Source of the DNA: Escherichia coli
GTDB taxonomy: Bacteria > Pseudomonadota > Gammaproteobacteria > Enterobacterales > Enterobacteriaceae
Assembly: GCF_044324785.1 (NCBI RefSeq)
Contig: NZ_CP172127.1
Reading direction: 5' to 3' (one strand)
Length of the DNA: 64,000 bases
The notes below the pieces were generated by a model. It was not told where the DNA came from and did not search any database. It worked only from the letters and a program-made list of their open reading frames with translations. Both the position numbers and the translations under genes were made by a program. Below, in pieces: positions 1-48,218 of the stretch (position 1 is the first letter of the stretch; each line of letters opens with the position of its first letter).

Positions 1-248
1 GCCAGATTTGCCACTTCCTCCAATGGGATATTATGGCTTTCAGCGAGCTTCTGATAACTCTCTTTCCGTGCCTGATTGATATTTGCTACCAGCTCTCGTG
101 TTTCTGGATCAGTGCTTATAGCCGCAAGGTAGCCATTATGCCTTTCACCTACCCGCCCCTGACTTCTGGCTTCATTCAGGGTTAATGCCATCGCACTACT
201 GCTCACCAGACCAATAATCCATACCGCTATGAGTAATGTTCTTTTCAT
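1..248 (-). CDS. ydbL: YdbL-like periplasmic protein (DUF1318), N-terminal ~82 codons; 3' end lies beyond window start
   Basis: Minus-strand ATG at 246-248, 7 nt after ynbE stop; translation begins MKRTLLIAVWIIGLVSSSAMA (signal peptide); position after ydbH-ynbE as in E. coli. Confidence 0.7.
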   Translation of the reverse strand, partial: MKRTLLIAVWIIGLVSSSAMALTLNEARSQGRVGERHNGYLAAISTDPETRELVANINQARKESYQKLAESHNIPLEEVANL

Positions 249-255
249 CATTACC

Positions 256-441
256 TCAGAAAAGATCGCTACGAGTTTCAAGCAGCTCTTCGACATCTTT
301 GTCTGCCTTGATGATGATCTCATGCTCAATTTTAACGTTCATATTGATAGTGATCGGTTCCTTAGGTGCAGCGACTTCAATGCGAGGCGTACAGCCAACC
401 AGCATAAAAGATGACGTCAACGCAGCCAGTAAAATTTTCAT
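256..441 (-). CDS. ynbE: small lipoprotein YnbE (61 aa)
   Basis: 61-aa ORF with lipobox LVGC; start overlaps ydbH stop by 4 nt (ATGA), operon-like. Confidence 0.8.
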   Translation of the reverse strand: MKILLAALTSSFMLVGCTPRIEVAAPKEPITINMNVKIEHEIIIKADKDVEELLETRSDLF

Positions 442-3077: not shown

Positions 3078-3284
3078 GGGTAGTTAATATCCTGATTTAG
3101 CGAAAAATTAAGCATTCAATACGGGTATTGTGGCATGTTTAACCGTTCAGTTGAAGGTTGCGCCTACACTAAGCATAGTTGTTGATGAATTTTTCAATAT
3201 CGCCATGGCTTTCAATTATATTTGAAATTTTGTAAAATATTTTTAGTAGCTTAAATGTGATTCAACATCACTGGAGAAAGTCTT

Positions 3285-4274
3285 ATGAAACTCGCCGTTT
3301 ATAGCACAAAACAGTACGACAAGAAGTACCTGCAACAGGTGAACGAGTCCTTTGGCTTTGAGCTGGAATTTTTTGACTTTCTGCTGACGGAAAAAACCGC
3401 TAAAACGGCCAATGGCTGCGAAGCGGTATGTATTTTCGTAAACGATGACGGCAGCCGCCCGGTGCTGGAAGAGCTGAAAAAGCACGGCGTTAAATATATC
3501 GCCCTGCGCTGTGCCGGTTTCAATAACGTCGACCTTGACGCGGCAAAAGAACTGGGGCTGAAAGTAGTCCGTGTTCCAGCCTATGATCCAGAAGCCGTTG
3601 CTGAACACGCCATCGGTATGATGATGACGCTGAACCGCCGTATTCATCGCGCGTATCAGCGTACTCGTGACGCCAACTTCTCTCTGGAAGGTCTGACCGG
3701 CTTTACTATGTATGGCAAAACGGCAGGCGTTATCGGTACCGGTAAAATCGGTGTGGCGATGCTGCGCATTCTGAAAGGTTTTGGTATGCGTCTGCTGGCG
3801 TTCGATCCGTATCCAAGTGCGGCGGCACTGGAACTCGGTGTGGAGTATGTCGATCTGCCAACCCTGTTCTCTGAATCAGACGTTATCTCTCTGCACTGCC
3901 CGCTGACACCGGAAAACTACCATCTGTTGAACGAAGCCGCCTTTGATCAGATGAAAAATGGCGTGATGATCGTCAATACCAGTCGCGGTGCATTGATTGA
4001 TTCTCAGGCGGCAATTGAAGCGCTGAAAAATCAGAAAATTGGTTCGTTGGGTATGGACGTGTATGAGAACGAACGCGATCTGTTCTTTGAAGACAAATCC
4101 AACGACGTGATCCAGGATGACGTATTCCGTCGTCTGTCTGCCTGCCACAACGTGCTGTTTACCGGGCACCAGGCATTCCTGACAGCAGAAGCACTGACCA
4201 GTATTTCTCAGACTACGCTGCAAAACTTAAGCAATCTGGAAAAAGGCGAAACCAGCCCGAACGAACTGGTTTAA
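3285..4274 (+). CDS. ldhA: fermentative D-lactate dehydrogenase, NAD-dependent (329 aa)
   Basis: 329 aa; D-2-hydroxyacid dehydrogenase NAD-binding motif GVIGTGKIG; begins MKLAVYSTKQYDKKYL. Confidence 0.95.
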   Translation: MKLAVYSTKQYDKKYLQQVNESFGFELEFFDFLLTEKTAKTANGCEAVCIFVNDDGSRPVLEELKKHGVKYIALRCAGFNNVDLDAAKELGLKVVRVPAYDPEAVAEHAIGMMMTLNRRIHRAYQRTRDANFSLEGLTGFTMYGKTAGVIGTGKIGVAMLRILKGFGMRLLAFDPYPSAAALELGVEYVDLPTLFSESDVISLHCPLTPENYHLLNEAAFDQMKNGVMIVNTSRGALIDSQAAIEALKNQKIGSLGMDVYENERDLFFEDKSNDVIQDDVFRRLSACHNVLFTGHQAFLTAEALTSISQTTLQNLSNLEKGETSPNELV

Positions 4275-4281
4275 TCTTGCC

Positions 4282-4309
4282 GCTCCCCTGCATTCCAGGG
4301 GAGCTTATT
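4282..4309 (+). terminator. rho-independent terminator of ldhA
   Basis: stem gctcccctg / caggggagc with loop cattc, followed by ttattc, 8 nt after ldhA stop. Confidence 0.6.
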
Positions 4310-4384
4310 CAGATAATCCCCAAAGACCTTTCATCCTCTATTCTTAAAATAGTCCTGAGTCAGAAACTGTAATTGAGAACCACA

Positions 4385-4807
4385 ATGAAGAAAGTAGCCG
4401 CGCTCGTTGCGCTAAGCCTGCTGATGGCGGGATGTGTAAGTAATGACAAAATTGCTGTAACCCCAGAACAGCTACAGCATCATCGCTTTGTGCTGGAAAG
4501 CGTAAACGGTAAGCCCGTGACCAGCGATAAAAATCCGCCAGAAATCAGCTTTGGTGAAAAGATGATGATTTCCGGCAGCATGTGTAACCGCTTTAGCGGT
4601 GAAGGCAAACTGTCTAATGGTGAACTGACAGCCAAAGGGCTGGCAATGACCCGTATGATGTGCGCTAACCCGCAGCTTAATGAACTCGATAACACCATTA
4701 GCGAAATGCTGAAAGAAGGTGCACAAGTGGATCTGACCGCGAACCAGTTAACGCTGGCGACCGCGAAACAGACATTAACTTATAAGCTGGCGGATTTAAT
4801 GAATTAA
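4385..4807 (+). CDS. hslJ: heat-shock lipoprotein HslJ (140 aa)
   Basis: ORF track 4373..4807; start set at MKKVAALVALSLLMAGC (lipobox) to match the 140-aa protein. Confidence 0.85.
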   Translation: MKKVAALVALSLLMAGCVSNDKIAVTPEQLQHHRFVLESVNGKPVTSDKNPPEISFGEKMMISGSMCNRFSGEGKLSNGELTAKGLAMTRMMCANPQLNELDNTISEMLKEGAQVDLTANQLTLATAKQTLTYKLADLMN

Positions 4808-5070
4808 TAGCTGCCACAGCTCCCGGCGGCAAGTGACTGTTCGCTACAGCGTTTGCCGTTGGGTAATGCACACATCCCAATCGCCGTACCATCCAGTTGA
4901 CGGGCAACAGAAAGCGAACCGCCGATCATTGCACAATTTGCTTCTCCACTACTGGACATCGACGCTTTTAAACCTGGCGCTACGTGCGCCGCAGTCGCCT
5001 GTTGAACAGGTTCACTACTACACGCCGACAACAATAAAGCGGCACACCCTACCCAAAACGCTGCTCGCAT
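4804..5070 (-). CDS. ydbJ: DUF333 lipoprotein YdbJ (88 aa)
   Basis: 88-aa ORF with signal peptide and lipobox LSAC; convergent 4-bp overlap with hslJ. Confidence 0.8.
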   Translation of the reverse strand: MRAAFWVGCAALLLSACSSEPVQQATAAHVAPGLKASMSSSGEANCAMIGGSLSVARQLDGTAIGMCALPNGKRCSEQSLAAGSCGSY

Positions 5071-5343
5071 CTTTTCTTCCTCTGATCTTCAAGCCAAACG
5101 ACACCGCCATAAATAATAGGCAGCACAGAGGGCGACGTCGAGAGCTGTCCTGCGCGTTGCCCCGCATTTTTACTTTTTTATGGCTATTTTTTTGCCCTCT
5201 GTTTGATCAAAACATTCATTACGCTGATGTGGGGGACACAAAAGCGAAAATGCAGAAGAAAGCCATTTGCTAAAATTGAAAGATAACTACTGGGCGCGCA
5301 GCAATTTCGTGCGCCCCTCATTTGCGCAATGTAAGGGTGTCAT

Positions 5344-8300
5344 ATGATTACTATTGACGGTAATGGCGCGGTTGCTTCGGTGGCGTTTCGCACCAGTGAA
5401 GTTATCGCCATCTACCCTATTACCCCCAGTTCCACGATGGCAGAACAGGCTGATGCATGGGCCGGAAACGGCTTGAAAAACGTCTGGGGAGACACACCAC
5501 GCGTGGTTGAAATGCAGTCGGAAGCAGGTGCTATCGCTACCGTGCATGGCGCTTTGCAGACGGGTGCCCTTTCAACATCGTTTACGTCATCGCAGGGTTT
5601 GCTGCTGATGATCCCGACGCTGTACAAACTGGCAGGCGAACTCACACCGTTTGTCCTACATGTAGCGGCACGTACCGTTGCCACACATGCACTCTCTATT
5701 TTTGGCGATCATTCCGACGTCATGGCGGTGCGCCAGACGGGTTGCGCGATGTTGTGTGCGGCAAACGTCCAGGAAGCGCAAGACTTTGCTCTCATTTCGC
5801 ACATCGCGACGCTGAAAAGCCGCGTGCCATTTATTCATTTCTTTGATGGTTTCCGCACGTCCCACGAAATCAATAAAATTGTCCCGCTGGCCGATGACAC
5901 GATTCTTGATCTCATGCCGCAGGCCGAAATTGATGCTCATCGCGCCCGGGCACTCAACCCGGAACATCCGGTGATCCGCGGTACGTCCGCCAATCCTGAC
6001 ACTTATTTCCAGTCTCGCGAAGCCACCAACCCCTGGTACAACGCGGTCTATGACCATGTTGAGCAGGCGATGAATGATTTCGCTGCCGCGACAGGTCGTC
6101 AGTATCAGCCGTTTGAGTATTACGGGCATCCGCAAGCTGAACGAGTGATTATCCTGATGGGCTCAGCCATTGGCACCTGTGAAGAAGTGGTTGATGAATT
6201 GCTAACCCGTGGCGAAAAAGTCGGCGTGCTGAAAATTCGCCTGTACCGCCCCTTCTCAGCCAAACACTTGCTACAAGCTCTGCCGGGATCCGTACGCAGC
6301 GTGGCGGTACTGGACAGAACCAAAGAACCCGGTGCCCAGGCAGAACCGCTCTATCTGGATGTGATGACCGCACTGGCAGAAGCCTTTAATAATGGCGAGC
6401 GCGAAACCCTGCCCCGTGTCATTGGTGGGCGCTATGGTCTTTCATCCAAAGAATTTGGCCCGGACTGTGTACTGGCGGTATTTGCCGAGCTCAACGCGGC
6501 TAAACCGAAAGCGCGCTTTACGGTTGGTATTTACGATGATGTGACCAATCTGTCACTGCCGTTGCCGGAAAACACCCTGCCAAACTCGGCGAAACTTGAA
6601 GCCTTGTTTTATGGCCTTGGTAGTGATGGCAGCGTTTCCGCGACCAAAAACAATATCAAGATTATCGGTAATTCCACGCCGTGGTACGCACAGGGCTATT
6701 TTGTTTACGACTCCAAAAAGGCGGGCGGCCTGACGGTTTCTCACCTTCGCGTGAGCGAGCAGCCGATTCGTTCCGCTTATCTCATTTCCCAGGCTGATTT
6801 TGTTGGCTGCCACCAGTTGCAGTTTATCGATAAATATCAGATGGTTGAACGTTTAAAACCTAGCGGCATTTTCCTGCTCAACACGCCGTACAGCGCAGAT
6901 GAAGTGTGGTCGCGCTTGCCGCAGGAAGTTCAGGCCGTGTTAAACCAGAAAAAAGCGCGCTTCTATGTGATTAACGCGGCGAAAATCGCCCGCGAATGTG
7001 GCCTGGCGGCCCGTATTAATACCGTCATGCAGATGGCTTTTTTCCATCTGACGCAAATTCTGCCTGGCGATAGCGCCCTCGCAGAATTGCAGGGTGCGAT
7101 TGCCAAAAGTTACAGTAGCAAAGGTCAGGATCTGGTGGAGCGCAACTGGCAGGCTCTGGCGCTGGCGCGTGAATCCGTAGAAGAAGTTCCGTTGCAGCCG
7201 GTTAATCCGCACAGCGCCAATCGACCGCCTGTGGTTTCCGATGCCGCTCCTGATTTCGTGAAAACCGTTACCGCGGCGATGCTCGCCGGGCTTGGTGATG
7301 CCCTCCCCGTTTCGGCGCTGCCGCCAGACGGCACCTGGCCGATGGGCACCACGCGCTGGGAAAAACGCAATATCGCCGAAGAGATCCCCATCTGGAAAGA
7401 GGAACTCTGTACCCAATGTAACCACTGCGTCGCCGCTTGCCCACACTCAGCTATTCGCGCAAAAGTGGTACCGCCTGAAGCGATGGAAAACGCCCCTGCC
7501 AGCCTGCATTCGCTGGATGTGAAATCGCGTGATATGCGCGGGCAGAAATATGTCTTGCAGGTGGCACCGGAAGATTGCACCGGCTGTAACCTGTGCGTCG
7601 AAGTTTGCCCGGCGAAAGACCGTCAGAATCCAGAGATTAAAGCCATCAATATGATGTCGCGCCTGGAACATGTCGAAGAAGAGAAAATCAATTACGATTT
7701 CTTCCTCAACCTGCCAGAAATCGACCGTAGCAAACTGGAACGTATTGATATTCGTACATCGCAGCTGATTACACCGCTGTTTGAATATTCAGGTGCTTGC
7801 TCCGGTTGTGGCGAGACGCCGTATATTAAATTGCTGACTCAGCTCTATGGCGACCGGATGTTGATCGCTAACGCCACGGGCTGTTCTTCAATTTATGGCG
7901 GTAACCTGCCCTCTACACCGTATACTACCGATGCCAACGGTCGAGGACCGGCATGGGCGAACTCGCTGTTTGAAGATAACGCCGAATTTGGCCTTGGTTT
8001 CCGCCTGACGGTCGATCAACACCGTGTCCGCGTGCTGCGTCTGCTGGATCAATTTGCCGATAAAATCCCGGCTGAATTACTAACTGCGTTGAAATCAGAC
8101 GCCACGCCAGAGGTTCGTCGTGAACAGGTTGCAGCTTTACGCCAGCAACTCAAAGATGTTGCCGAAGCACATGAACTGCTACGTGACGCAGATGCGCTGG
8201 TGGAAAAATCAATCTGGCTGATTGGCGGCGACGGCTGGGCTTACGATATCGGCTTTGGCGGTTTGGATCATGTATTGAGTTTGACAGAAAACGTCAACAT

Positions 8301-8868
8301 TCTGGTGCTGGATACGCAATGCTATTCCAACACCGGTGGTCAGGCGTCGAAAGCGACACCGCTGGGTGCAGTAACTAAGTTCGGCGAGCACGGCAAACGT
8401 AAAGCGCGTAAAGATCTTGGCGTCAGTATGATGATGTACGGTCATGTTTATGTGGCGCAGATTTCTCTCGGCGCGCAGCTCAACCAGACGGTGAAAGCGA
8501 TTCAGGAAGCGGAAGCGTATCCGGGGCCATCGCTGATCATCGCTTATAGCCCCTGTGAAGAGCATGGTTACGATCTGGCACTCAGTCACGACCAGATGCG
8601 CCAACTCACTGCTACCGGCTTCTGGCCGCTATATCGCTTTGATCCGCGTCGTGCCGATGAAGGCAAACTGCCGCTGGCGCTGGATTCACGCCCGCCGTCA
8701 GAAGCACTGGAAGAAACGTTACTTCATGAGCAGCGTTTCCGTCGTCTGAATTCGCTGCAGCCAGAAGTGGCAGAACAGTTATGGAAAGATGCTGCAGCTG
8801 ATTTGCAAAAACGCTATGACTTCCTGGCACAAATGGCCGGAAAAGCGGAAAAAAGCAACACCGATTAA
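5344..8868 (+). CDS. ydbK: pyruvate:flavodoxin/ferredoxin oxidoreductase (1174 aa)
   Basis: 1174 aa; two 4Fe-4S ferredoxin motifs CTQCNHCVAACP and CTGCNLCVEVCP; TPP-binding GGDGWAYDIGFGG. Confidence 0.95.
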   Translation: MITIDGNGAVASVAFRTSEVIAIYPITPSSTMAEQADAWAGNGLKNVWGDTPRVVEMQSEAGAIATVHGALQTGALSTSFTSSQGLLLMIPTLYKLAGELTPFVLHVAARTVATHALSIFGDHSDVMAVRQTGCAMLCAANVQEAQDFALISHIATLKSRVPFIHFFDGFRTSHEINKIVPLADDTILDLMPQAEIDAHRARALNPEHPVIRGTSANPDTYFQSREATNPWYNAVYDHVEQAMNDFAAATGRQYQPFEYYGHPQAERVIILMGSAIGTCEEVVDELLTRGEKVGVLKIRLYRPFSAKHLLQALPGSVRSVAVLDRTKEPGAQAEPLYLDVMTALAEAFNNGERETLPRVIGGRYGLSSKEFGPDCVLAVFAELNAAKPKARFTVGIYDDVTNLSLPLPENTLPNSAKLEALFYGLGSDGSVSATKNNIKIIGNSTPWYAQGYFVYDSKKAGGLTVSHLRVSEQPIRSAYLISQADFVGCHQLQFIDKYQMVERLKPSGIFLLNTPYSADEVWSRLPQEVQAVLNQKKARFYVINAAKIARECGLAARINTVMQMAFFHLTQILPGDSALAELQGAIAKSYSSKGQDLVERNWQALALARESVEEVPLQPVNPHSANRPPVVSDAAPDFVKTVTAAMLAGLGDALPVSALPPDGTWPMGTTRWEKRNIAEEIPIWKEELCTQCNHCVAACPHSAIRAKVVPPEAMENAPASLHSLDVKSRDMRGQKYVLQVAPEDCTGCNLCVEVCPAKDRQNPEIKAINMMSRLEHVEEEKINYDFFLNLPEIDRSKLERIDIRTSQLITPLFEYSGACSGCGETPYIKLLTQLYGDRMLIANATGCSSIYGGNLPSTPYTTDANGRGPAWANSLFEDNAEFGLGFRLTVDQHRVRVLRLLDQFADKIPAELLTALKSDATPEVRREQVAALRQQLKDVAEAHELLRDADALVEKSIWLIGGDGWAYDIGFGGLDHVLSLTENVNILVLDTQCYSNTGGQASKATPLGAVTKFGEHGKRKARKDLGVSMMMYGHVYVAQISLGAQLNQTVKAIQEAEAYPGPSLIIAYSPCEEHGYDLALSHDQMRQLTATGFWPLYRFDPRRADEGKLPLALDSRPPSEALEETLLHEQRFRRLNSLQPEVAEQLWKDAAADLQKRYDFLAQMAGKAEKSNTD

Positions 8869-8896
8869 ATGTTCTGGATAAGAATTATCCAATTCT

Positions 8897-9006
8897 AAAA
8901 AAAAGCCCGAACGACTGTTCGGGCTTGTCTTTTTATATGTTGGAAAATCAGTGGCAATGCAATGGCCCAACAGAAAATAAAATCTGTGACAATAAAGGCA
9001 TATAAC
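8897..9006 (-). ncRNA. micC: MicC small RNA (about 109 nt), antisense regulator of porin mRNAs
   Basis: Minus-strand sequence GTTATATGCCTTTATTGTCACAGATTTTATTTTCTGTTGGGCC... ending in hairpin GCCCGAACAGTCGTTCGGGC plus U-run matches MicC as I recall it; lies between ydbK and ompN. Confidence 0.85.
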
Positions 9007-9233
9007 CCGCGCAGAATAACGTATAGCAAATTAAAAGTATAATTTTTATTTTGTATGTATTATCTCCAATACATTCACCAGACTTATTATCATTTCAGAA
9101 GAATTATTTGATTAAGGTTTTACTTAAGGCGTAACAAATAATATTTATCGGCTAACTGAACTTCTCCTTTAGGATGTTTTCACTCCCCGAAATGGGGATA
9201 AAAGGCAAATAAAATAACTAAAGGATTTATTCA

Positions 9234-10367
9234 ATGAAAAGCAAAGTACTGGCACTTTTAATTCCTGCCCTGCTCGCCGCAGGTGCTGCACATGCAGCCG
9301 AAGTTTATAATAAAGACGGCAACAAATTAGATCTGTATGGCAAAGTTGATGGCCTGCATTATTTTTCTGATAATTCAGCGAAAGATGGCGACCAGAGCTA
9401 TGCGCGTCTGGGTTTTAAAGGCGAAACCCAAATTAACGATCAACTAACTGGCTACGGTCAATGGGAATACAATATTCAGGCAAACAACACTGAATCCTCA
9501 AAAAACCAGTCATGGACCCGTCTGGCATTTGCCGGATTGAAATTTGCAGATTACGGTTCTTTCGATTACGGACGTAATTATGGCGTAATGTACGACATCG
9601 AAGGCTGGACCGATATGCTGCCTGAATTTGGCGGTGACTCTTATACCAATGCAGACAACTTTATGACTGGTCGAGCCAATGGCGTCGCGACTTATCGTAA
9701 TACTGATTTCTTCGGTCTGGTAAATGGTCTGAACTTCGCGGTGCAGTATCAAGGTAACAACGAAGGTGCCAGTAATGGTCAGGAAGGCACCAACAACGGA
9801 CGTGATGTTCGCCATGAAAACGGTGACGGCTGGGGTCTTTCCACAACATATGATTTAGGCATGGGCTTTAGCGCTGGTGCGGCATACACCTCTTCTGACC
9901 GCACCAATGACCAGGTTAACCATACTGCGGCGGGTGGTGATAAAGCAGACGCATGGACTGCTGGGCTAAAATACGATGCTAACAATATTTACCTGGCAAC
10001 CATGTATTCAGAAACGCGTAATATGACCCCGTTTGGCGACAGCGATTATGCTGTTGCAAACAAAACCCAGAACTTTGAAGTTACTGCACAGTACCAGTTT
10101 GATTTTGGTCTGCGTCCGGCAGTCTCTTTCCTGATGTCTAAAGGCCGTGACCTGCACGCTGCCGGTGGTGCAGACAACCCGGCAGGTGTTGATGATAAAG
10201 ATCTGGTTAAATACGCCGATGTTGGCGCGACTTACTATTTCAACAAAAATATGTCCACCTACGTTGACTATAAAATCAACCTGTTGGATGAAGATGACAG
10301 CTTCTACGCTGCCAACGGCATCTCTACCGATGATATTGTCGCTTTAGGTCTGGTTTATCAGTTCTAA
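9234..10367 (+). CDS. ompN: outer membrane porin OmpN (377 aa)
   Basis: 377 aa, signal peptide ending AHA, porin-like beta-strand pattern, C-terminal YQF. Confidence 0.95.
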
Positions 10368-10375
10368 ATCCTCCT

Positions 10376-10399
10376 GCCCGCTGTTATGGCGGGCTTTTT
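10376..10399 (+). terminator. rho-independent terminator of ompN
   Basis: gcccgc tgttatg gcgggc followed by ttttt. Confidence 0.7.
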
Positions 10400-10426
10400 C
10401 TGCTTATTCTTCCTCCTTTGATCTAA

Positions 10427-10942
<516 letters not shown>

Positions 10943-10949
10943 CACTAAC

Positions 10950-10975
10950 GCCCGCACATTGCTGCGGGCTTTTTG
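10950..10975 (+). terminator. rho-independent terminator of uspF
   Basis: gcccgca cattgc tgcgggc followed by ttttt. Confidence 0.7.
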
Positions 10976-11117
10976 ATTCATTTCGCAAATGTGCTGACAT
11001 TTTCCCCTCTAATCCGTACCATACACGCCACTGTTTTTATATCAGATTTCTTATGCTGGGCATTCCGGCATGACGCATACTCTTCTGATGCCATATAACG
11101 AATTGAGTCGCTTTTAA

Positions 11118-12053
11118 ATGTCGCAAAATCAAGAAATTAGTAAGAAAGAACAATACAACCTGAACAAATTACAAAAACGTCTGCGTCGTAACGTGGGCGA
11201 AGCCATTGCTGACTTCAATATGATTGAAGAAGGCGATCGCATCATGGTTTGCCTCTCCGGGGGTAAAGACAGCTATACCATGCTGGAGATTCTGCGCAAT
11301 TTGCAGCAAAGCGCGCCAATCAATTTTTCGCTGGTGGCTGTTAACCTCGATCAAAAGCAACCGGGCTTCCCGGAACACGTTCTGCCCGAGTATCTTGAAA
11401 AGCTGGGCGTTGAGTACAAGATTGTTGAAGAGAACACTTACGGTATCGTGAAAGAGAAAATTCCAGAGGGCAAAACCACTTGCTCACTGTGTTCTCGCCT
11501 GCGTCGCGGTATCCTTTATCGTACCGCAACGGAACTAGGGGCGACGAAGATCGCACTGGGTCACCATCGTGACGATATCCTGCAAACGCTGTTCTTAAAT
11601 ATGTTCTACGGTGGCAAGATGAAAGGTATGCCTCCGAAACTGATGAGCGATGATGGCAAACATATCGTGATTCGTCCGCTGGCCTACTGCCGCGAGAAAG
11701 ATATTCAGCGCTTTGCCGATGCAAAAGCGTTCCCGATTATTCCGTGCAACCTGTGCGGTTCACAGCCTAACCTGCAACGTCAGGTAATTGCTGACATGTT
11801 GCGTGACTGGGATAAACGTTATCCGGGGCGTATCGAGACGATGTTCAGCGCAATGCAGAATGTGGTGCCGTCGCATCTGTGCGATACCAACCTGTTCGAT
11901 TTCAAAGGCATTACCCACGGTTCTGAAGTGGTTAACGGGGGTGATCTGGCGTTTGATCGCGAAGAGATCCCACTACAACCGGCGGGCTGGCAGCCAGAAG
12001 AAGATGAAAATCAGTTGGATGAGTTACGACTGAATGTGGTTGAAGTGAAATAA
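11118..12053 (+). CDS. ttcA: tRNA 2-thiocytidine(32) synthetase TtcA, intact (311 aa)
   Basis: 311 aa; PP-loop ATP pyrophosphatase motif SGGKDS; CxxC pairs (CSLC, CNLC). Confidence 0.9.
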
Positions 12054-12100
12054 CCAGGATAGCGCCCGATGCGCAAGCGTATCGGGCTACTCTTATGGAG

Positions 12101-12133
12101 GCCGGATAAGACGCGGCCAGCGTCGCGTCCGGC
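12101..12133. repeat. REP/PU-like palindromic element in the ttcA-dbpA convergent spacer
   Basis: gccggataagacgcggccagcgtcgcgtccggc resembles the GCCGGATAAG...CCGGC REP family; a separate hairpin (gcccgat...atcgggc) lies at 12064-12087. Confidence 0.5.
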
Positions 12134-12181
12134 AATCCCGGAGAAGATGTTTACTCTTGCACCCTGCGATTCAACATTTCA

Positions 12182-13555
12182 TTATTTTAATAACCGCACC
12201 CGGCACGTTTTTCCTTTAATCTTCCCGCCCTGCAACTGTTTCCATGCTTTATGAGCAACAGCCTGACGCACCGCGACATAGACATGCGCCGGATGCACGG
12301 CGATTTTGCCAATATCTGCGCCATCAAGCCCGATATCTCCTGTCAGCGCACCTAATACATCACCCGGGCGCATTTTGGCTTTTTTCCCGCCATCGATACA
12401 TAACGTTGCCATTTCGGCTTCCAGCGGCACAATGGAACTATTAACTGGCGGCGTTTGCCAGTTAAGTTTTATCTGCAACATGTCAGAAATGATATTGGCC
12501 CGCTGTGCTTCTTCCGGGGCACAGAAACTGATCGCCAGACCGCTATTTCCTGCACGCGCTGTGCGACCGATGCGATGTACATGAACTTCAGGATCCCACG
12601 CCAGCTCAAAGTTCACCACCAGCTCAAGCGATTTAATATCCAGACCTCGCGCAGCAACATCAGTCGCAACCAGTACACGGGCGCTACCGTTAGCAAAACG
12701 TACCAGGGTCTGATCGCGATCGCGTTGCTCCAGATCGCCGTGTAACGACAATGCACTTTGCCCTACTTCATTCAGCGCGTCGCAGACAGCCTGGCAATCT
12801 TTTTTGGTATTGCAAAACACCACACAAGAGGATGGCTGATGCAAGCTTAATAACCGTTGCAACAGAGGAATTTTGCCTTTACTGGATGTCTCATAAAATT
12901 GTTGTTCAATGGGTGGCAAAGCATCTGTTGAGTCAATTTCAATCGCCAAAGGATCGCGTTGCACTCGTCCGCTGATTGCGGCGATGGCTTCCGGCCAGGT
13001 TGCCGAAAACAGAAGCGTCTGTCGAGATGCAGGCGCAAAACGGATGACATCATCAATGGCATCGCTAAATCCCATATCCAGCATGCGGTCGGCCTCATCC
13101 ATCACCAAAGTATTCAGCGCATCCAGTGATACCGTGCCTTTTTGCAAGTGATCCAGCAAACGACCCGGCGTTGCCACGATAATATGCGGCGCATGTTGCA
13201 ACGAATCACGCTGCAAACCGAACGGTTGACCACCGCACAACGTCAAAATTTTGGTATTTGGCAGAAAACGCGCCAACCGACGCAATTCACCTGCCACCTG
13301 ATCCGCCAGTTCACGCGTAGGACACAGCACTAAAGCCTGGGTTTGAAATAGCGACGCATCAATTTGCTGTAACAAGCCGAGGCCAAAAGCCGCCGTTTTG
13401 CCGCTGCCGGTTTTCGCCTGCACGCGAACATCTTTTCCGGCAAGGATCGCCGGAAGCGCGGCGGCCTGCACCGGCGTCATGGTTAAATAACCCAACTCAT
13501 TAAGGTTCGTGAGTTGGGCGGGAGGCAAAACATTCAGGGTAGAAAAAGCGGTCAC
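12182..13555 (-). CDS. dbpA: ATP-dependent DEAD-box RNA helicase DbpA (457 aa)
   Basis: 457 aa; Walker A AKTGSGKT, DEAD box VMDEADRML, SAT motif. Confidence 0.95.
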   Translation of the reverse strand: MTAFSTLNVLPPAQLTNLNELGYLTMTPVQAAALPAILAGKDVRVQAKTGSGKTAAFGLGLLQQIDASLFQTQALVLCPTRELADQVAGELRRLARFLPNTKILTLCGGQPFGLQRDSLQHAPHIIVATPGRLLDHLQKGTVSLDALNTLVMDEADRMLDMGFSDAIDDVIRFAPASRQTLLFSATWPEAIAAISGRVQRDPLAIEIDSTDALPPIEQQFYETSSKGKIPLLQRLLSLHQPSSCVVFCNTKKDCQAVCDALNEVGQSALSLHGDLEQRDRDQTLVRFANGSARVLVATDVAARGLDIKSLELVVNFELAWDPEVHVHRIGRTARAGNSGLAISFCAPEEAQRANIISDMLQIKLNWQTPPVNSSIVPLEAEMATLCIDGGKKAKMRPGDVLGALTGDIGLDGADIGKIAVHPAHVYVAVRQAVAHKAWKQLQGGKIKGKTCRVRLLK

Positions 13556-13584
13556 AATCTATTCTCGTGGTCATCGACGCAAAG

Positions 13585-13758
13585 TTAGCAGGCGCGTATC
13601 CTCGCAGATCTACGCTCACGATGCGACAATTTAATCGGTTCTTCATCGGGTGGTGGGTCAGGCATGGGTTGCGGGCGAGGGATTGGATCGGGCACAGGAA
13701 CAGGATCGCCAGGAATCGGTTCAGGGACAGGAATTTGCAAATAAATAAGTGTCGTCAT
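13585..13758 (-). CDS. candidate small proline-rich protein (57 aa), immediately upstream of dbpA
   Basis: ATG at 13758 preceded by GGAGGG 4 nt upstream; translation MTTLIYLQIPVPEPIPGDPVPVPDPIPRPQPMPDPPPDEEPIKLSHRERRSARIRAC; stop 29 nt before dbpA ATG; below the 60-aa cut-off of the ORF track. Confidence 0.4.
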   Translation of the reverse strand: MTTLIYLQIPVPEPIPGDPVPVPDPIPRPQPMPDPPPDEEPIKLSHRERRSARIRAC

Positions 13759-13815
13759 ATTTCCCTCCGGTCATTGGGTGGACTCTTAAAGGGTAGACGC
13801 TGATAAATAACAGGC

Positions 13816-13937
13816 AAAAAAAAGCCGACTCATCAAAGTCGGCGTCGTACGAATCAATTGTGCTATGCAGTAATTCAAAAAAGGAAGTAAGACAATATGG
13901 AGCGCAACGCCCATCGCTTGACGTTGCATTCACCTGC
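13816..13937 (-). ncRNA. fnrS: FnrS small RNA (about 122 nt), FNR-activated anaerobic sRNA
   Basis: Minus-strand GCAGGTGAATGCAACGTCAAGCGATGGGCGTTGCGCTCC...GCCGACTTTGATGAGTCGGC plus U8 matches FnrS as I recall it. Confidence 0.85.
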
Positions 13938-13972
13938 AAGGGAGATATTGCCCTGAATGGGTAGAGAGTTTA

Positions 13973-13986
13973 TTGACTTCGCTCAA
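13973..13986 (-). promoter_or_regulatory. FNR binding site upstream of fnrS
   Basis: TTGACttcgCTCAA, centred about 42 bp upstream of the inferred FnrS 5' end. Confidence 0.7.
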
Positions 13987-14032
13987 ACTTTGCGGCGTTT
14001 TTGTATACAGACAGCCGGAAAAATTGCTTTTG

Positions 14033-15037
<1,005 letters not shown>

Positions 15038-15270
15038 TTATTTTGTAGTCTAGCCTTCTGGCCCTGTTACGCAACATCTCATCACCCCATTACCCTGAAA
15101 TGATTAATAAAATTCTGTCTAAATTGAATACAAAAAGCAAAATGCTTTTCCATATACAAACCGTGTGAAGTGTTAAATAGCGTCTATCATTATCAGAATT
15201 ATCTGATCATATGACGTGGCTTTTTTGCGATCGGATAGCAACAAAAATTGATAAAAATAATGGGATCTCA

Positions 15271-16503
15271 ATGATTACGCACAACTTCAATACCCTGGAC
15301 TTACTCACCAGTCCTGTCTGGATCGTTTCGCCCTTTGAGGAACAGTTAATTTATGCCAATAGCGCGGCGCGACTGTTGATGCAAGACCTCACGTTTAGTC
15401 AGCTACGAACCGGTCCCTATTCCGTCTCCTCACAAAAAGAACTGCCAAAATACCTCTCCGATCTGCAAAACCAACACGATATTATCGAAATCCTCACCGT
15501 TCAGCGCAATGAAGAGGAAACAGCATTGAGCTGTCGGCTTGTTTTGCGAAAGCTGACAGAAGCAGAACCGGTGATTATTTTCGAAGGTATCGAAGCACCG
15601 GCAACGCTGGGTTTAAAAGCCAGTCGCTCGGCAAATTATCAGCGCAAAAAACAAGGTTTTTATGCGCGCTTTTTTCTGACTAACTCTGCACCAATGTTGT
15701 TGATTGACCCGTCACGAGATGGACAAATCGTCGATGCTAACCTCGCCGCGCTCAATTTCTATGGTTATAACCATGAAACGATGTGCCAGAAACATACCTG
15801 GGAAATAAATATGCTCGGGCGTCGCGTCATGCCTATCATGCATGAAATCTCGCATTTACCCGGTGGTCATAAGCCTTTGAATTTTATTCATAGGCTGGCG
15901 GATGGTTCGACTCGTCATGTGCAGACCTATGCCGGTCCGATTGAAATTTATGGCGACAAGCTCATGTTATGTATTGTGCATGATATTACTGAGCAAAAAC
16001 GGCTGGAGGAGCAGCTGGAACATGCTGCCCACCATGACGCGATGACAGGATTACTGAATCGGCGACAGTTTTATCACATTACCGAGCCAGGCCAAATGCA
16101 GCACCTCGCCATCGCCCAGGATTACAGCTTGTTGCTCATCGACACCGATCGTTTTAAACACATTAACGATCTCTATGGGCATTCTAAAGGTGATGAGGTG
16201 TTATGCGCCCTCGCCCGCACTCTCGAAAGTTGCGCTCGCAAAGGCGATTTGGTGTTTCGTTGGGGAGGCGAAGAGTTTGTCTTATTGCTACCAAGAACCC
16301 CACTGGATACCGCGCTTTCGCTGGCTGAAACTATCCGCGTAAGCGTGACAAAAGTGAGTATTTCGGGCTTACCACGCTTTACCGTCAGCATTGGTGTGGC
16401 GCATCACGAAGGAAATGAAAGCATCGATGAACTGTTTAAACGCGTTGATGATGCTTTGTATCGGGCGAAAAATGATGGACGCAACCGCGTGCTGGCGGCA
16501 TAA
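15271..16503 (+). CDS. dgcM: PAS-GGDEF diguanylate cyclase DgcM/YdaM (410 aa)
   Basis: ORF track 15211..16503; start set at MITHNFNTLD; GGDEF active-site motif RWGGEEF. Confidence 0.9.
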   Translation: MITHNFNTLDLLTSPVWIVSPFEEQLIYANSAARLLMQDLTFSQLRTGPYSVSSQKELPKYLSDLQNQHDIIEILTVQRNEEETALSCRLVLRKLTEAEPVIIFEGIEAPATLGLKASRSANYQRKKQGFYARFFLTNSAPMLLIDPSRDGQIVDANLAALNFYGYNHETMCQKHTWEINMLGRRVMPIMHEISHLPGGHKPLNFIHRLADGSTRHVQTYAGPIEIYGDKLMLCIVHDITEQKRLEEQLEHAAHHDAMTGLLNRRQFYHITEPGQMQHLAIAQDYSLLLIDTDRFKHINDLYGHSKGDEVLCALARTLESCARKGDLVFRWGGEEFVLLLPRTPLDTALSLAETIRVSVTKVSISGLPRFTVSIGVAHHEGNESIDELFKRVDDALYRAKNDGRNRVLAA

Positions 16504-16523
16504 GCCGCGGATGCGTCTCGAGA

Positions 16524-17087
16524 TCAACGACTGCGCTTAGCGTGGCGCTCCCAGTTTTCTTGCTTCGCCTGCGCCGTTTTACGTAGTGCGACGTAACACG
16601 CCCCGCTGCCGCCATGATGCGGTAGCGCGGTGCAATATGCCTGAACATCATCAAATTCGGTCAGCCAGCGCGCCACATAGCTGCGGACAATATTGGCATG
16701 CGATTTATCATCCCGCCCTTTACCATGAATAATCAGCACGTTACGCAAACCATCCGCCAGGGCTTGTTGAATAAAACTGAACACCATTTTGCGGCACTCT
16801 TCCACCGGCTGGCGCAAAAGATTCAGGCTCGCCTGTTGCGGATATTTACCACTGCGCAGCTTATCCAGCACCCCATGTTGCAACCCTTCCCGCCGAAACT
16901 CCAGCGGCTGACTTAGTGGGATGATGTCGAGAAATCCGGTGGTGAGGAAATTATCAAGCTGCAGCGTGTCGATACGCTGCGGCGCACGTTGGTTACGCGT
17001 TGGATGCCAGTGGACATCGGTAGCACGTTTCAGCGGCTGGACATCTTCCATGGCGTCAAGAAACAGCGATTTGTCGTCAAGGTTCAT
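16524..17087 (-). CDS. smrA: Smr-domain DNA endonuclease SmrA/YdaL (187 aa)
   Basis: 187-aa ORF; length and position match YdaL. Confidence 0.85.
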   Translation of the reverse strand: MNLDDKSLFLDAMEDVQPLKRATDVHWHPTRNQRAPQRIDTLQLDNFLTTGFLDIIPLSQPLEFRREGLQHGVLDKLRSGKYPQQASLNLLRQPVEECRKMVFSFIQQALADGLRNVLIIHGKGRDDKSHANIVRSYVARWLTEFDDVQAYCTALPHHGGSGACYVALRKTAQAKQENWERHAKRSR

Positions 17088-17281: not shown

Positions 17282-18796
17282 TCAGGATGATTTATTCATA
17301 GCAGGAACCAACAAAAATGCGATAAATAACAGACCACTGATTAGCAGAAAGGTATCCGAAAATGCCATAGTTTGCGCCTCCCTCAGCATCAATTGACTTA
17401 ATAATTTGGTTGAAGCCAGTATTTCCGATGTCTGGTCACTTCCACTGCGATTAAAAAACAAAGCACTTCTGGAAATGAAGTCATTCACCGTATGGGGAAC
17501 AGAAACCATTTTTTCACCCATTCTCGAAAAATGAAAATTAGTTCGATTATTGAGAATAGAGCCACACAGGGCAATACCAATCGCGCCCCCAAGATTACGT
17601 GTTAAATTAAATACACCAGAGGCTAACTTCAGCCGTTCTTTTGGAATTCCCCCCAGCGTTAATGTTACGATGGGGGCCATCGCAAACTGCTGCGAAATCC
17701 CTCTAATTGCCTGTGGAAACAGTAACTCCTGCCATCCCCATTCGTGGGTTATCGGGGTAAAAAGATACATTGAAAACACAAATCCACCCAGCCCCGCCAT
17801 CAACAGCCATCGCAGATTTATTTTTTTACTTAACCAGAAGTAAAAGGGAACAGAAAATAACTGGAAAATACCTGTTGTGCAAACGGCAAAACCTATCTCT
17901 TCGGCATTTAATCCGCGAACCTGCCCCAAAAACACAGGTATTAAATATACAGTAGAGAATATCCCAACCCCTCCAGAAAAAGAAAAAAAACATCCCAGCG
18001 TGAAATTTTTATCCTTAAAAGCATGAAGATCCATTATCGGATTGGATATTGTAAGTGTACGCACAGCAAATAAAATAAAACTCACCAATGCCAGAACTGA
18101 TGTCAGCAAAATAGTATTATCATCCAGCCATCCCCAGCGCGCTCCTTCTTCAACGGTATATTCCAGACATCCCAGTGTCATGGCCAACAGGATAATACTC
18201 GGATAATCAGCAACTTTCAGTAAAGAGAGATCAGGTTTATCAAAATTAACCAGAAAAGGAATACTCAAAACTAAATATATGCCAGGTAATATATTGATAT
18301 AAAATAGCCATCGCCAGTCGAGATTATCAGTGATCCAGCCCCCCAGAGTTGGCCCTAGCGTCGGTGACAGTGAGGCCAGCGCACTGACTACCGCAGCAGC
18401 CAACCCCAGCTCTTTACCCTGGTAATAAATAAACGCCGTCGTGAAAACTAAAGGGATCATGGATGCGCCAGCCGCTCCCTGTAAAGCACGAAACAAAATC
18501 ATGATCTGAATATTCCATGCAAGTCCACACGCGATACTCATTAAAGTAAATATTCCCGCGGATAGAGTAAAAAGCCAACGAGTGGAAAATACCCGTGACA
18601 GCCACCCAGAGAGCGGAATAACAATAATCTCAGCAATTAAATAGCTGGTCTGAAGCCAGGCCATTTCGTCTTTACCTGCGGACAGACCACCACCTATTTC
18701 ATTTAGGGATGACGATACAATTTGAATATCAAGCTGAGCAATAAATAATCCCATACACATACTGGCGAAAGCAATATGTTTACGCATAGACATCAT
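17282..18796 (-). CDS. MFS transporter, EmrB/QacA-like multidrug-efflux type (504 aa)
   Basis: 504 aa, highly hydrophobic with many predicted TM segments; start overlaps upstream MFP stop by 4 nt (ATGA). Confidence 0.8.
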   Translation of the reverse strand: MMSMRKHIAFASMCMGLFIAQLDIQIVSSSLNEIGGGLSAGKDEMAWLQTSYLIAEIIVIPLSGWLSRVFSTRWLFTLSAGIFTLMSIACGLAWNIQIMILFRALQGAAGASMIPLVFTTAFIYYQGKELGLAAAVVSALASLSPTLGPTLGGWITDNLDWRWLFYINILPGIYLVLSIPFLVNFDKPDLSLLKVADYPSIILLAMTLGCLEYTVEEGARWGWLDDNTILLTSVLALVSFILFAVRTLTISNPIMDLHAFKDKNFTLGCFFSFSGGVGIFSTVYLIPVFLGQVRGLNAEEIGFAVCTTGIFQLFSVPFYFWLSKKINLRWLLMAGLGGFVFSMYLFTPITHEWGWQELLFPQAIRGISQQFAMAPIVTLTLGGIPKERLKLASGVFNLTRNLGGAIGIALCGSILNNRTNFHFSRMGEKMVSVPHTVNDFISRSALFFNRSGSDQTSEILASTKLLSQLMLREAQTMAFSDTFLLISGLLFIAFLLVPAMNKSS

Positions 18797-19824
18797 CTCT
18801 CATCAACACTGACGGTGACGGACAGTCCCGGGCGAAGAAGTTGCTTTAATTCCTTTGCGTCGTCAAATGCAATCCGTACCGGGACACGCTGAACAATTTT
18901 GGTGAAATTGCCAGTGGCATTTTCTATCGGAATCAAGCTGAAACTGGCTCCTGTCGCTGGGGAAAGGCTTTCAATGTGACCGTGAAACACTTCCCCTTTG
19001 AGAATATCAGCACGGATCTCAGCCTTCATTCCTGGCTTCATTCCCGCTATTTGGTTTTCTTTATAATTTGCATCAACCCACAACTCACTGACTGGTACTA
19101 GTGAAACTAACGATGTGCCGCCTTCCACCCAACTGCCTGTATGGGCGCTGCGGTTTGCGACAATGCCATCAATCGGCGCACGAACAAGGGTATATTCCAG
19201 ATCCAGTAGTGCCTGAGTCAAAGCGGCCTGAACTTCTTCGATACTTGCACGTACGTTTTCTTCCTGAGCAGATAAAACTGCCAGCCGTTGCTTCTCCACC
19301 ATGAAATCGTTCGCGGCTTTGCGCTCCTTTGCTGCGACCTGCTGGTAGTCAAACCTGGCGTTATCAATAATTTGTTGCGATATTGCCGCTGATTGTGCGA
19401 GTTTTTCATAACGTTCAGTATCTCGCAGGCGCTTTTGCTCCTCATGTTTTACTGCCTGCCATGTTTCACTGGCACTTTGAATTATCGACTGCTGCATCGC
19501 AATAGTGGCTTGAATGCTTTCGAGATTGGCTTTGCTACTTTTTATTTTTGCCTCAAGCCTGGCGACATTTGCACGATAATCCCGATCATCGAGACGCAGG
19601 ATAATATCGCCTTTTTTTACGCTCTGATTATCGCGCACCTCTATAGCAGAAATATAACCAGAAACTTTACTTGCCACCGTGGTGATATTACCACCAATGT
19701 AAGCATCATCCGTCGTCTGTATAAATCTTCCTTTGCTTACCCACCAGATAAAAAAGACAACGCCAGCCAAAATAATACCGATCGCTACCACCCCAATAAG
19801 CTGTTTTTTAGAAATTATCATCAC
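18793..19824 (-). CDS. HlyD/EmrA-family membrane fusion protein (343 aa)
   Basis: N-terminal TM anchor (VVAIGIILAGVVFFIWW), long coiled-coil region, C-terminal beta-barrel segment typical of MFPs. Confidence 0.8.
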   Translation of the reverse strand: MMIISKKQLIGVVAIGIILAGVVFFIWWVSKGRFIQTTDDAYIGGNITTVASKVSGYISAIEVRDNQSVKKGDIILRLDDRDYRANVARLEAKIKSSKANLESIQATIAMQQSIIQSASETWQAVKHEEQKRLRDTERYEKLAQSAAISQQIIDNARFDYQQVAAKERKAANDFMVEKQRLAVLSAQEENVRASIEEVQAALTQALLDLEYTLVRAPIDGIVANRSAHTGSWVEGGTSLVSLVPVSELWVDANYKENQIAGMKPGMKAEIRADILKGEVFHGHIESLSPATGASFSLIPIENATGNFTKIVQRVPVRIAFDDAKELKQLLRPGLSVTVSVDER

Positions 19825-19917
19825 TCTTTACACCGTATATATCCGGAAACTTGCATTCGTCATATTTAAAATTTAACATGGCTTATTTGATGATTTCTGA
19901 CAAAATACCTACTGTAA

Positions 19918-20733
19918 ATGACAATCACACTGCAACCCAAAGCATCACCAGGGCATCACATTATCGGACTGGATTCGGAACATCTGAATGGAGGCACAGT
20001 TCCCTGGCATAAACATCTCTATGCCCAGTTGCTTTACCCGGCTGAAGGAGTCGTTCGTGTATGGGCTGGAGAAAGCGTCTGGCTAGTCCATGCCAGCAGC
20101 GCGCTTTGGCTGCCCCCACAAATGCCGCATAAGTTTGTTGCGACAGGCAACGTACTTTTAAAAACCGTACTGGTTTCAGAAGCGGAAAGTGAAACGCTGG
20201 GAAAAGTTTGCTTCATGACGGGTATTTCACCCCTGTTAAGAGAATTACTAATTGCAATTAACCAACTTCCACCGTCGCAAAGTACCACAGATAAACAACA
20301 GTTACGTTTTTCAGCCCTCGAGACACTGATACTTCAGGAAATAAAAATGGGGGTGAAAATGTCACTTGAACTCCCTTGGCCAAATGATGAGCGGCTACAG
20401 CAGCTTTGTGAGAATTTGCTAAACAACCAAGGGTATCTACCAACACTGGATAATCTAGCGGATAAAATTAACGTCAGTAGCCGTACACTCATGCGCTTAT
20501 TTGTTAAAGAGACGGGATTAACATTTCGCCACTGGGTTCAGCAAATGCACGTTATTTCTGCAGTGACGCTTCTTGATGATGGATATTCGTTGACCAAAAT
20601 TGCCCATCGTCTGGGCTATGCCTCAGCTGAATCGTTCGGCAATATGTTTAAGCGTCGAACGGGCTACTCGCCCGGTAAATTTACTCGTCGATTAACGATG
20701 CATGATTATGCAATCACAAGACAAATGATTTAA
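19918..20733 (+). CDS. AraC/XylS-family transcriptional regulator with N-terminal cupin-like domain (271 aa)
   Basis: C-terminal double HTH (KIAHRLGYASAESFGNMFKRRTGYSPGKF); divergent from the MFP-MFS operon. Confidence 0.8.
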   Translation: MTITLQPKASPGHHIIGLDSEHLNGGTVPWHKHLYAQLLYPAEGVVRVWAGESVWLVHASSALWLPPQMPHKFVATGNVLLKTVLVSEAESETLGKVCFMTGISPLLRELLIAINQLPPSQSTTDKQQLRFSALETLILQEIKMGVKMSLELPWPNDERLQQLCENLLNNQGYLPTLDNLADKINVSSRTLMRLFVKETGLTFRHWVQQMHVISAVTLLDDGYSLTKIAHRLGYASAESFGNMFKRRTGYSPGKFTRRLTMHDYAITRQMI

Positions 20734-20803: not shown

Positions 20804-20897
20804 ACCGGTCACCAGGACCCCAGGCCGGATTTAAGACGAGGATGCACTGCTGTGTGTACTGTAGAGTCTGGCGGATGTCGACAGACTCTATTTTTTT
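20804..20897 (+). ncRNA. mcaS: McaS (IsrA) small RNA
   Basis: ACCGGTCACCAGGACCCCAGGCCGGATTTAAGACGAGGATGCACTGCTGTGTGTACTGTAGAGTCTGGCGGATGTCGACAGACTCTATTTTTTT; GGA motifs plus terminal hairpin and U-run; -35/-10 candidates ttggca/tataac upstream. Confidence 0.8.
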
Positions 20898-20905
20898 ATG
20901 CAGTT

Positions 20906-26834: not shown

Positions 26835-26995
26835 ACATTAAACAATTTGTGCCAGCTTGTTCACACTTTTATGTAAAGTCACCCTTAACAACTTAAGGGT
26901 TTTCAAATAGATAGACATATATTTACATCTAATATCGGAATTCTCTGCTGTTAAGGTTTGCTTAGACTTACTTGCTCCCTAAAAAGATGTTAAAA

Positions 26996-27009
26996 TTGAC
27001 AAATATCAA
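26996..27009 (+). promoter_or_regulatory. FNR box at the fnr promoter (autoregulation site)
   Basis: TTGACaaatATCAA, 20 bp upstream of the fnr ATG. Confidence 0.7.
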
Positions 27010-27028: not shown

Positions 27029-27781
27029 ATGATCCCGGAAAAGCGAATTATACGGCGCATTCAGTCTGGCGGTTGTGCTATCCATTGCCAGGATTGCAGC
27101 ATCAGCCAGCTTTGCATCCCGTTCACACTCAACGAACATGAGCTTGATCAGCTTGATAATATCATTGAGCGGAAGAAGCCTATTCAGAAAGGCCAGACGC
27201 TGTTTAAGGCTGGTGATGAACTTAAATCGCTTTATGCCATCCGCTCCGGTACGATTAAAAGTTATACCATAACTGAGCAAGGCGACGAGCAAATCACTGG
27301 TTTCCATTTAGCAGGCGACCTGGTGGGATTTGACGCCATCGGCAGCGGCCATCACCCGAGCTTCGCGCAGGCCCTGGAAACCTCGATGGTATGTGAAATC
27401 CCGTTCGAAACGCTGGACGATTTGTCCGGTAAAATGCCGAATCTGCGTCAGCAGATGATGCGTCTGATGAGCGGTGAAATCAAAGGCGATCAGGACATGA
27501 TCCTGCTGTTGTCGAAGAAAAATGCCGAGGAACGTCTGGCTGCATTCATCTACAACCTGTCCCGTCGTTTTGCCCAACGCGGCTTCTCCCCTCGTGAATT
27601 CCGCCTGACGATGACTCGTGGCGATATCGGTAACTATCTGGGCCTGACGGTAGAAACCATCAGCCGTCTGCTGGGTCGCTTCCAGAAAAGCGGTATGCTG
27701 GCAGTCAAAGGTAAATACATCACCATCGAAAATAACGATGCGCTGGCCCAGCTTGCTGGTCATACGCGTAACGTTGCCTGA
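27029..27781 (+). CDS. fnr: global anaerobic regulator FNR (250 aa)
   Basis: ORF track 26972..27781; start set at [10 protein letters not shown]; Fe-S cysteine cluster CAIHCQDC; CRP-family HTH. Confidence 0.95.
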
Positions 27782-30691: not shown

Positions 30692-30746
30692 GGTGATGCT
30701 GCCAACTTACTGATTTAGTGTATGATGGTGTTTTTGAGGTGCTCCA

Positions 30747-31022
30747 GTGGCTTCTGTTTCTATCAGCTGTCCCTCCTGTTCAGCTACTGACGGGGTGGTG
30801 CGTAACGGCAAAAGCACCGCCGGACATCAGCGCTATCTCTGCTCTCACTGCCGTAAAACATGGCAACTGCAGTTCACTTACACCGCTTCTCAACCCGGTA
30901 CGCACCAGAAAATCATTGATATGGCCATGAATGGCGTTGGATGCCGGGCAACTGCCCGCATTATGGGCGTTGGCCTCAACACGATTTTACGTCACTTAAA
31001 AAACTCAGGCCGCAGTCGGTAA
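30747..31022 (+). CDS. insA: IS1 InsA (91 aa)
   Basis: [43 protein letters not shown]... zinc-finger/HTH InsA. Confidence 0.95.
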
Positions 31023-31444: not shown

Positions 31445-31459
31445 GTTGGAGTCATTACC

Positions 31460-47310: not shown

Positions 47311-48218
<908 letters not shown>

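Follow-up and report, generated by a model that had tools for sequence, protein, structure and literature searches.

The FNR-FnrS locus of an Escherichia coli-type chromosome segment: comparison with K-12 and conservation across the Enterobacterales

The locus described here is almost certainly the canonical FNR-FnrS regulatory module of enterobacteria, carried on a chromosome of the E. coli type. This module is textbook knowledge, already known, and present in essentially all E. coli. The whole stretch of DNA analyzed, which is referred to below as the window, comprised 64,000 nucleotides, and the presence, position, integrity and conservation of the cis elements and of both genes, together with their identity to K-12, were shown by the analysis. 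No evidence contradicting the canonical FNR-FnrS explanation was found in the analysis. The coordinates of the relevant features are presented in Table 1.

Table 1. Features of the fnrS and fnr loci and of the neighboring uspF upstream region
Feature	Position in window	Strand	Description
fnrS gene	13816..13937	-	122-nt small RNA; Rfam RF01796 match and identity to K-12 b4699
FnrS 5' end, nt 1-10	13928..13937	-	GCAGGUGAAU; pairing region including G4 and G5 (mutated in fnrS-III)
FnrS central region, nt 44-61	13877..13894	-	UGUCUUACUUCCUUUUUU; C/U-rich; contains C47-U49 (fnrS-II) and U57-U59 (fnrS-I)
Intrinsic terminator of FnrS	13816..13843	-	Stem-loop GCCGACUUUGAUGAGUCGGC at 13824-13843, followed by the U8 tail at 13816-13823
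Single-base difference from K-12	13941	-	fnrS promoter, -4; C in place of the K-12 T
Probable -10 hexamer of the fnrS promoter	13945..13950	-	CAATAT; putative, at -13..-8
FNR activation site, fnrS promoter	13973..13986	-	TTGAGcgaaGTCAA on the FnrS strand; center -42.5
Weak upstream FNR-like box, fnr	26893..26906	+	TTAAGggttTTCAA; 103 bp farther upstream than the -0.5 site
Probable -10 hexamer of the fnr promoter	26991..26996	+	TAAAAT; putative, at -12..-7 relative to A27003
FNR autorepression site, fnr promoter	26996..27009	+	TTGACaaatATCAA; overlaps the fnr transcription start; center -0.5
fnr gene	27029..27781	+	Complete 250-aa ORF; oxygen-sensing [4Fe-4S] transcription factor FNR
uspF FNR box	10418-10431	+	TTGATctaaATTAA; 9/10 consensus fit; precedes the uspF start codon (10509) by ~85 nt

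Identity and conservation of the FnrS RNA

The whole window was scanned against Rfam 15 at gathering thresholds, and three matches were obtained. The match to RF01796 (frnS), at 13820-13937 on the minus strand, scored 134.8 bits (E = 4.4e-24; gathering score, 60) and spanned the full model from position 1 to position 119. Alignment with the fnrS gene of K-12 MG1655 (b4699) detected identity at 122 of 122 nucleotides. A preliminary description of this DNA, made from the letters of the window, had placed FnrS at exactly the position listed in Table 1, and the Rfam match and the K-12 alignment bore out these coordinates. In the K-12 MG1655 record, fnrS is a 122-nt ncRNA located at 1409129-1409250 between zntB and ynaL/dbpA; the window had the K-12 gene order of zntB-fnrS-ynaL-dbpA with all of these genes on the same strand, and the annotations of strains 504838 and N3 were also compared. 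On the minus strand, positions 13600-14200 comprised the terminal part of zntB, an intergenic region, the small RNA gene and a short ORF. The fnrS locus was found in 5,392 of 5,426 complete E. coli genomes.

Two other small RNAs exceeded their Rfam gathering scores in the window, namely, MicC at 8889-9009 on the minus strand, adjoining ompN (127.5 bits), and McaS/IsrA at 20804-20899 on the plus strand, adjoining abgR (113.5 bits). Both are known Hfq-dependent small RNAs. The neighboring ynaL gene (13585-13758, minus strand) begins 57 nt past the U tail of FnrS on the same strand and encodes a proline-rich protein of 57 aa with the same sequence as in K-12; in strain N3, this gene has a frameshift according to the annotation. 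The YnaL small protein was validated by VanOrsdel et al. 2018 (PMC6001520).

A set of loci for phylogenetic footprinting was assembled by scanning one genome per species with a degenerate pattern derived from the 5' hairpin of FnrS. Sixty-two homologous Enterobacterales FnrS loci, ranging from Escherichia to Photorhabdus, Yersinia, Erwinia and Arsenophonus, were recovered and combined with the window to produce an alignment of 63 sequences. The first ~50 nt of FnrS and the C/U-rich stretch were nearly invariant among these loci; nt 1 to 9 were invariant and nt 10 (U) was conserved in at least 90% of sequences, with the proviso that the invariance of the 5' hairpin was partly built in because the search pattern fixed parts of it. 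The 5' pairing region (nt 1 to 10) was the same as that of K-12. The central region (nt 44 to 61), which is complementary to Shine-Dalgarno sequences, was likewise identical to K-12 and was strongly conserved between genera.

Both regions contain positions at which pairing mutants have been constructed. According to PMC8595263, which cites Durand & Storz 2010 on this point, these mutants carry the substitutions U57A, U58G and U59A (fnrS-I), C47A, U48A and U49G (fnrS-II) or G4C and G5U (fnrS-III). Numbering from G13937 as nt 1, the window FnrS had the wild-type base at G4/G5, C47-U49 and U57-U59, as follows from the complete identity of the RNA to that of K-12. Divergence in the seed regions, which the preliminary description had named as the observation that would count against a functional circuit, was looked for relative to K-12, and none was detected.

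The intrinsic terminator consisted of an 8-bp stem with 5 G-C pairs followed by the U8 tail, and was detected by the terminator scan and also in the Rfam consensus structure. In the alignment of 63 loci, the terminator stem exhibited covariation, with 16 to 21 sequences per pair being altered on both sides. The stability of a single-sequence fold of FnrS did not significantly exceed that of shuffled sequences (z = -1.67), and hence structural support for the RNA was drawn instead from the Rfam model and from the cross-genus covariation of the terminator. The poly-U terminator of FnrS is the Hfq-binding 3' module.

The FNR box and promoter of fnrS

On the plus strand, the fnrS box at 13973-13986 reads TTGACTTCGCTCAA (also given as TTGACttcgCTCAA). 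Counted from the annotated start at G13937, this box spans -49 to -36 and is therefore centered at -42.5, which is a class II position overlapping the site where a -35 element would be located. All 14 positions were identical to the K-12 site. In Table 1 of Myers 2013 (PMC3688515), a ChIP-seq peak and direct activation by FNR are reported for fnrS, with the site at -42.5; supplementary file 6 of that study presents the site as TTGAGCGAAGTCAA, which is the sequence of the window box when read on the FnrS strand. The FNR consensus quoted in the same study (Myers 2013, PMC3688515) is TTGATnnnnATCAA, and the fnrS box fits this consensus at 8 of 10 positions. The FNR site that had been proposed to precede FnrS was thus found in place.

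A sigma-70 promoter scan of the region upstream of fnrS detected no consensus promoter with a -35 element. The lack of a stand-alone sigma-70 promoter fits an activator-dependent class II promoter, and the scan was set aside as uninformative for fnrS because such a promoter depends on its activator. The hexamer CAATAT (13945-13950) is probably the -10 element, since A-12 and T-8 were each conserved in 97% of the 63 loci and are spaced like the key A and T of such a hexamer. A terminator-like hairpin reported on the plus strand at 13948-13964 by the terminator scan was put down to chance, since the fnrS promoter spacer in which it is located is not conserved and no plus-strand gene converges on it.

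The frequency of FNR-like palindromes in the window was compared to the chance expectation. Two occurrences of TTGA-N6-TCAA were observed versus 1.45 expected, and 51 occurrences of TTGAT-N4-ATCAA with at most two mismatches were observed versus 36.6 expected. Neither pattern was above chance, and the motif count was rejected as proof by itself; the count with at most two mismatches indicated that boxes fitting the consensus at 8 of 10 positions are common by chance. The sites were judged to be real because of their positions relative to the transcription starts and their exact identity to K-12 sites with ChIP peaks (Myers 2013, PMC3688515), and the fnrS box was further judged to be real because of the phylogenetic footprint across the Enterobacterales. 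The best FNR-like box was centered exactly at -42.5 in 61 of the 63 loci and at -41.5 in the other 2, as counted from the conserved GCAGGUG start, and all 63 boxes fit the consensus at 8 to 9 of 10 positions. The TTGA/TCAA half-sites (-48 to -46 and -39 to -36) were 94% to 100% conserved, while conservation in the spacer from -30 to -17 was at most 65%. A 14-bp FNR-like palindrome, for which the count alone was not significant, is thus made convincing by its position relative to the start, its cross-genus conservation and its identity to a ChIP-validated site.

CRP and FNR bind related palindromes at the same class II position, and Durand & Storz 2010 are reported to have found somewhat reduced FnrS levels in crp and arcA mutants. 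These points could be taken to favor a reading in which the fnrS palindrome is mainly a site for CRP or another CRP-family regulator, such that FnrS would answer to carbon source and not to oxygen. The half-sites are of the FNR type (TTGA/TCAA), not the GTGA/TCAC type of CRP, and the T at -48, which is the discriminating first position of the TTGA core, was invariant in 63 of 63 loci. In K-12, anaerobic induction of FnrS has been reported to be lost in an fnr deletion with crp intact. Furthermore, both an FNR ChIP-seq peak and FNR-dependent activation have been detected in K-12 at exactly this sequence (Myers 2013, PMC3688515). A primary role for CRP at this box is, on this evidence, exceedingly improbable, and the palindrome is treated below as an FNR site.

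The T-to-C substitution at -4 was the sole difference from K-12 detected by alignment within the fnrS promoter and RNA. The two alleles were counted with 41-mers that had this base at their center, a design in which a match could be seeded only by the allele queried. Of the 5,426 complete E. coli genomes, 1,392 (~26%) had C and 3,643 had T; among the 63 Enterobacterales loci, T was present in 55 and C in 7. These results indicated that C at -4 is a frequent natural variant. The base falls between the -10 element and the start site, in a stretch that can affect open-complex stability, but an effect of the C allele on the amount of FnrS or on the sharpness of its induction is unlikely. If such an effect were true, the anaerobic post-transcriptional response would vary quantitatively among natural E. 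coli lineages. The contig of a metagenome-assembled genome, 'Proteobacteria bacterium OH_SBlB_131', matched positions 11125-16916 at 98.0% identity and also carried C at -4.

A third FNR site, missed in the preliminary description, was detected upstream of uspF. The uspF site of Myers 2013 (PMC3688515) is TTAATTTAGATCAA, with an FNR ChIP peak in K-12, and the window box, TTGATctaaATTAA, is the reverse complement of this ChIP-validated sequence. The uspF box is only 3.5 kb from fnrS because the Rac prophage is absent. At the uspF-ttcA-dbpA junction (~10940-12180), ttcA has uspF and ompN as its immediate neighbors, an arrangement shared with strain N3, whereas in K-12 and strain 504838 ttcA is followed by intR and ~23 kb of Rac; uspF, ompN and micC are consequently only 3 to 5 kb from fnrS in the window. 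At least 80% of positions 1-14000 was covered in a single matched place by 3,518 of the 5,426 complete genomes.

The fnr gene, its promoter and the surrounding segment

The FNR protein encoded in the window was identical to K-12 NP_415850.1 at 250 of 250 residues. Cys20, Cys23, Cys29 and Cys122 were present in the translation, as were Glu209, Ser212 and Arg213 of the helix-turn-helix. The four cysteines are the ligands of the [4Fe-4S] cluster, and the latter three residues contact DNA.

The fnr box, TTGACAAATATCAA, ends 20 nt before the fnr start codon (27029), fits the consensus at 9 of 10 positions and was identical to K-12 at 14 of 14 positions. In Myers 2013 (PMC3688515), fnr is described as directly repressed from a site at -0.5, with citation of Mettert & Kiley 2007. 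The supplementary site for fnr in Myers 2013 (PMC3688515) is TTGATATTTGTCAA, the reverse complement of the window box. A comparison with curated FNR sites had been suggested as a check in the preliminary description, and both boxes were found to equal the sites in Myers 2013 (PMC3688515). The two boxes are ~13.0 kb apart, as had been described. They had also been called matching, which holds insofar as both fit the FNR consensus but not with respect to their actions, which are opposite: from their positions, the fnrS box (-42.5) activates and the fnr box (-0.5) represses.

On the assumption that the fnr start of this strain is that of K-12, we infer from the -0.5 center that +1 is A27003 and that TAAAAT is the likely -10 element. 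No promoter was flagged by the sigma-70 scan of the fnr promoter because, despite a good -10 element, no -35 element passes the scan threshold. Between about -122 and the ATG, the promoter did not differ from that of K-12, and the only differences from K-12 within the aligned upstream stretch were two silent-looking substitutions, at 26813 and 26880, which lie outside both boxes. The weak upstream box, TTAAGggttTTCAA, was the same as in K-12, and it presumably corresponds to the -103.5 fnr site of Mettert & Kiley 2007. An identical -0.5 box was detected upstream of fnr in Citrobacter youngae, the sole fetched locus that reached fnr and hence too few for a footprint.

The window is an E. coli-type chromosome segment extending from ydbL to fabI and is reversed relative to K-12. 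Among 5,426 complete RefSeq E. coli genomes, the best identity over positions 1-14000 was 98.8%, to strain N3, and the identity to the same strain over positions 14001-39000 was 99.6%; the region looks mosaic. A three-gene island at 17282-20733, between smrA and abgR/McaS, was absent from K-12 and strain 504838 and encodes a DHA2-family MFS efflux permease (504 aa), an HlyD-family protein and an AraC-family regulator. The permease gene was intact in the window and frameshifted in strain N3.

Two insertion sequences were detected. An IS1 element of 768 bp with InsA and InsB ORFs (30692-31459), accompanied by a 9-bp target duplication, interrupted the gene for the murein tripeptide binding protein (mppA) and reduced it to a truncated ORF of 490 aa; this insertion was absent from the nearest complete genome, that of strain N3. 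An IS3-family element of 1,432 bp (46787-48218) was located between pspF and puuE and was also absent from strain N3. Its orfA/orfB pair is presumably IS150-like, by its resemblance to the InsJ sequence. A target duplication is suggested by a 4-bp overlap of the N3 alignments on the flanks of this element.

These insertions, both lacking from the nearest complete relative and one disrupting mppA, make gene inactivation elsewhere in the genome conceivable, and the fnrS promoter of the window has C at -4, where K-12 and the majority of loci across genera have T. A circuit with all of its parts present could, on these grounds, be weakened or silent due to the -4 substitution or to a trans defect, in hfq or isc, elsewhere; hfq, the Isc machinery for Fe-S cluster assembly and the mRNAs targeted by FnrS are all outside the window. 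The frequency of C at -4 in E. coli and its occurrence in several other genera are not the pattern of a deleterious mutation. Furthermore, the FNR box, the -10 element, the RNA and FNR were otherwise unchanged, and no insertion was detected in or near fnr or fnrS in the alignment to strain N3. We consider a weakened or silent circuit to be very improbable. The regulator, its autoregulatory site and the small RNA were all intact, as the preliminary description had held, and its expectation of a functional FNR-FnrS circuit gained support, with activity in this strain being anticipated from sequence identity to K-12.

The predicted circuit and related systems

Experiments in K-12 suggest that, in the window strain too, FNR would bind its sites, FnrS would be induced anaerobically and depend on Hfq, and its targets would be repressed. 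Without oxygen, FNR (27029-27781) would carry its [4Fe-4S] cluster, dimerize and bind to TTGAT-N4-ATCAA-like sites. At fnrS, the site at -42.5 would replace the -35 element and FNR would function as a class II activator of sigma-70 RNA polymerase. Activation would yield the 122-nt FnrS RNA (13816-13937, minus strand), ending at the intrinsic terminator with its U8 tail. In conjunction with Hfq, nt 1 to 10 and nt 44 to 61 of FnrS would pair with the ribosome-binding regions of target mRNAs for functions that are dispensable under anaerobic conditions, such as sodB, gpmA, cydDC, metE, yobA and iscR. This pairing would repress translation and lower mRNA levels, and FnrS would thereby let FNR, an activator, indirectly repress a second tier of genes. 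At the fnr promoter, FNR bound at -0.5 (26996-27009) would occlude RNA polymerase, with anaerobic negative autoregulation as the expected outcome.

The targets, pairing and Hfq dependence of FnrS are described in PMC3688515 (Table 5), PMC8595263 and PMC11572966. Table 5 of Myers 2013 (PMC3688515) lists gpmA, cydDC, chaA, adhP, sodB, yobA and dld, and metE is also given as a target in Myers 2013 (PMC3688515). The iscR gene is a target in PMC11572966, and rseA is one reported positive target of FnrS (PMC8595263).

The closest comparison is with K-12 itself. The K-12 fnrS locus (Durand & Storz 2010; Boysen et al. 2010; RF01796) has the same RNA, the same zntB, ynaL and dbpA neighbors, the box TTGAGCGAAGTCAA at -42.5 and the same terminator, but differs from the window in having T at -4 and in carrying Rac after ttcA. 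The K-12 fnr locus (Mettert & Kiley 2007; Myers et al. 2013) encodes the same protein and shares the -0.5 box and the weak upstream box.

Reversal of regulatory sign by a transcription factor acting through a small RNA is also a feature of Fur-RyhB in E. coli, FNR-AniS in Neisseria and the FNR/NarL-dependent NarS. The logic of these systems is the same, in that a sensor of one signal drives an Hfq-dependent small RNA that represses a second tier of mRNAs. FnrS and RyhB have common targets in sodB, sodA, marA and the isc operon (PMC8595263). RyhB, AniS and NarS belong to RNA families unrelated to that of FnrS and have different sensors; they are functional analogues and not homologues.

Overall, this chromosome segment carries an unaltered textbook anaerobic module, which has little significance beyond annotation. 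Since the module is unaltered, the strain is expected to switch between aerobic and anaerobic metabolism in the manner of K-12.
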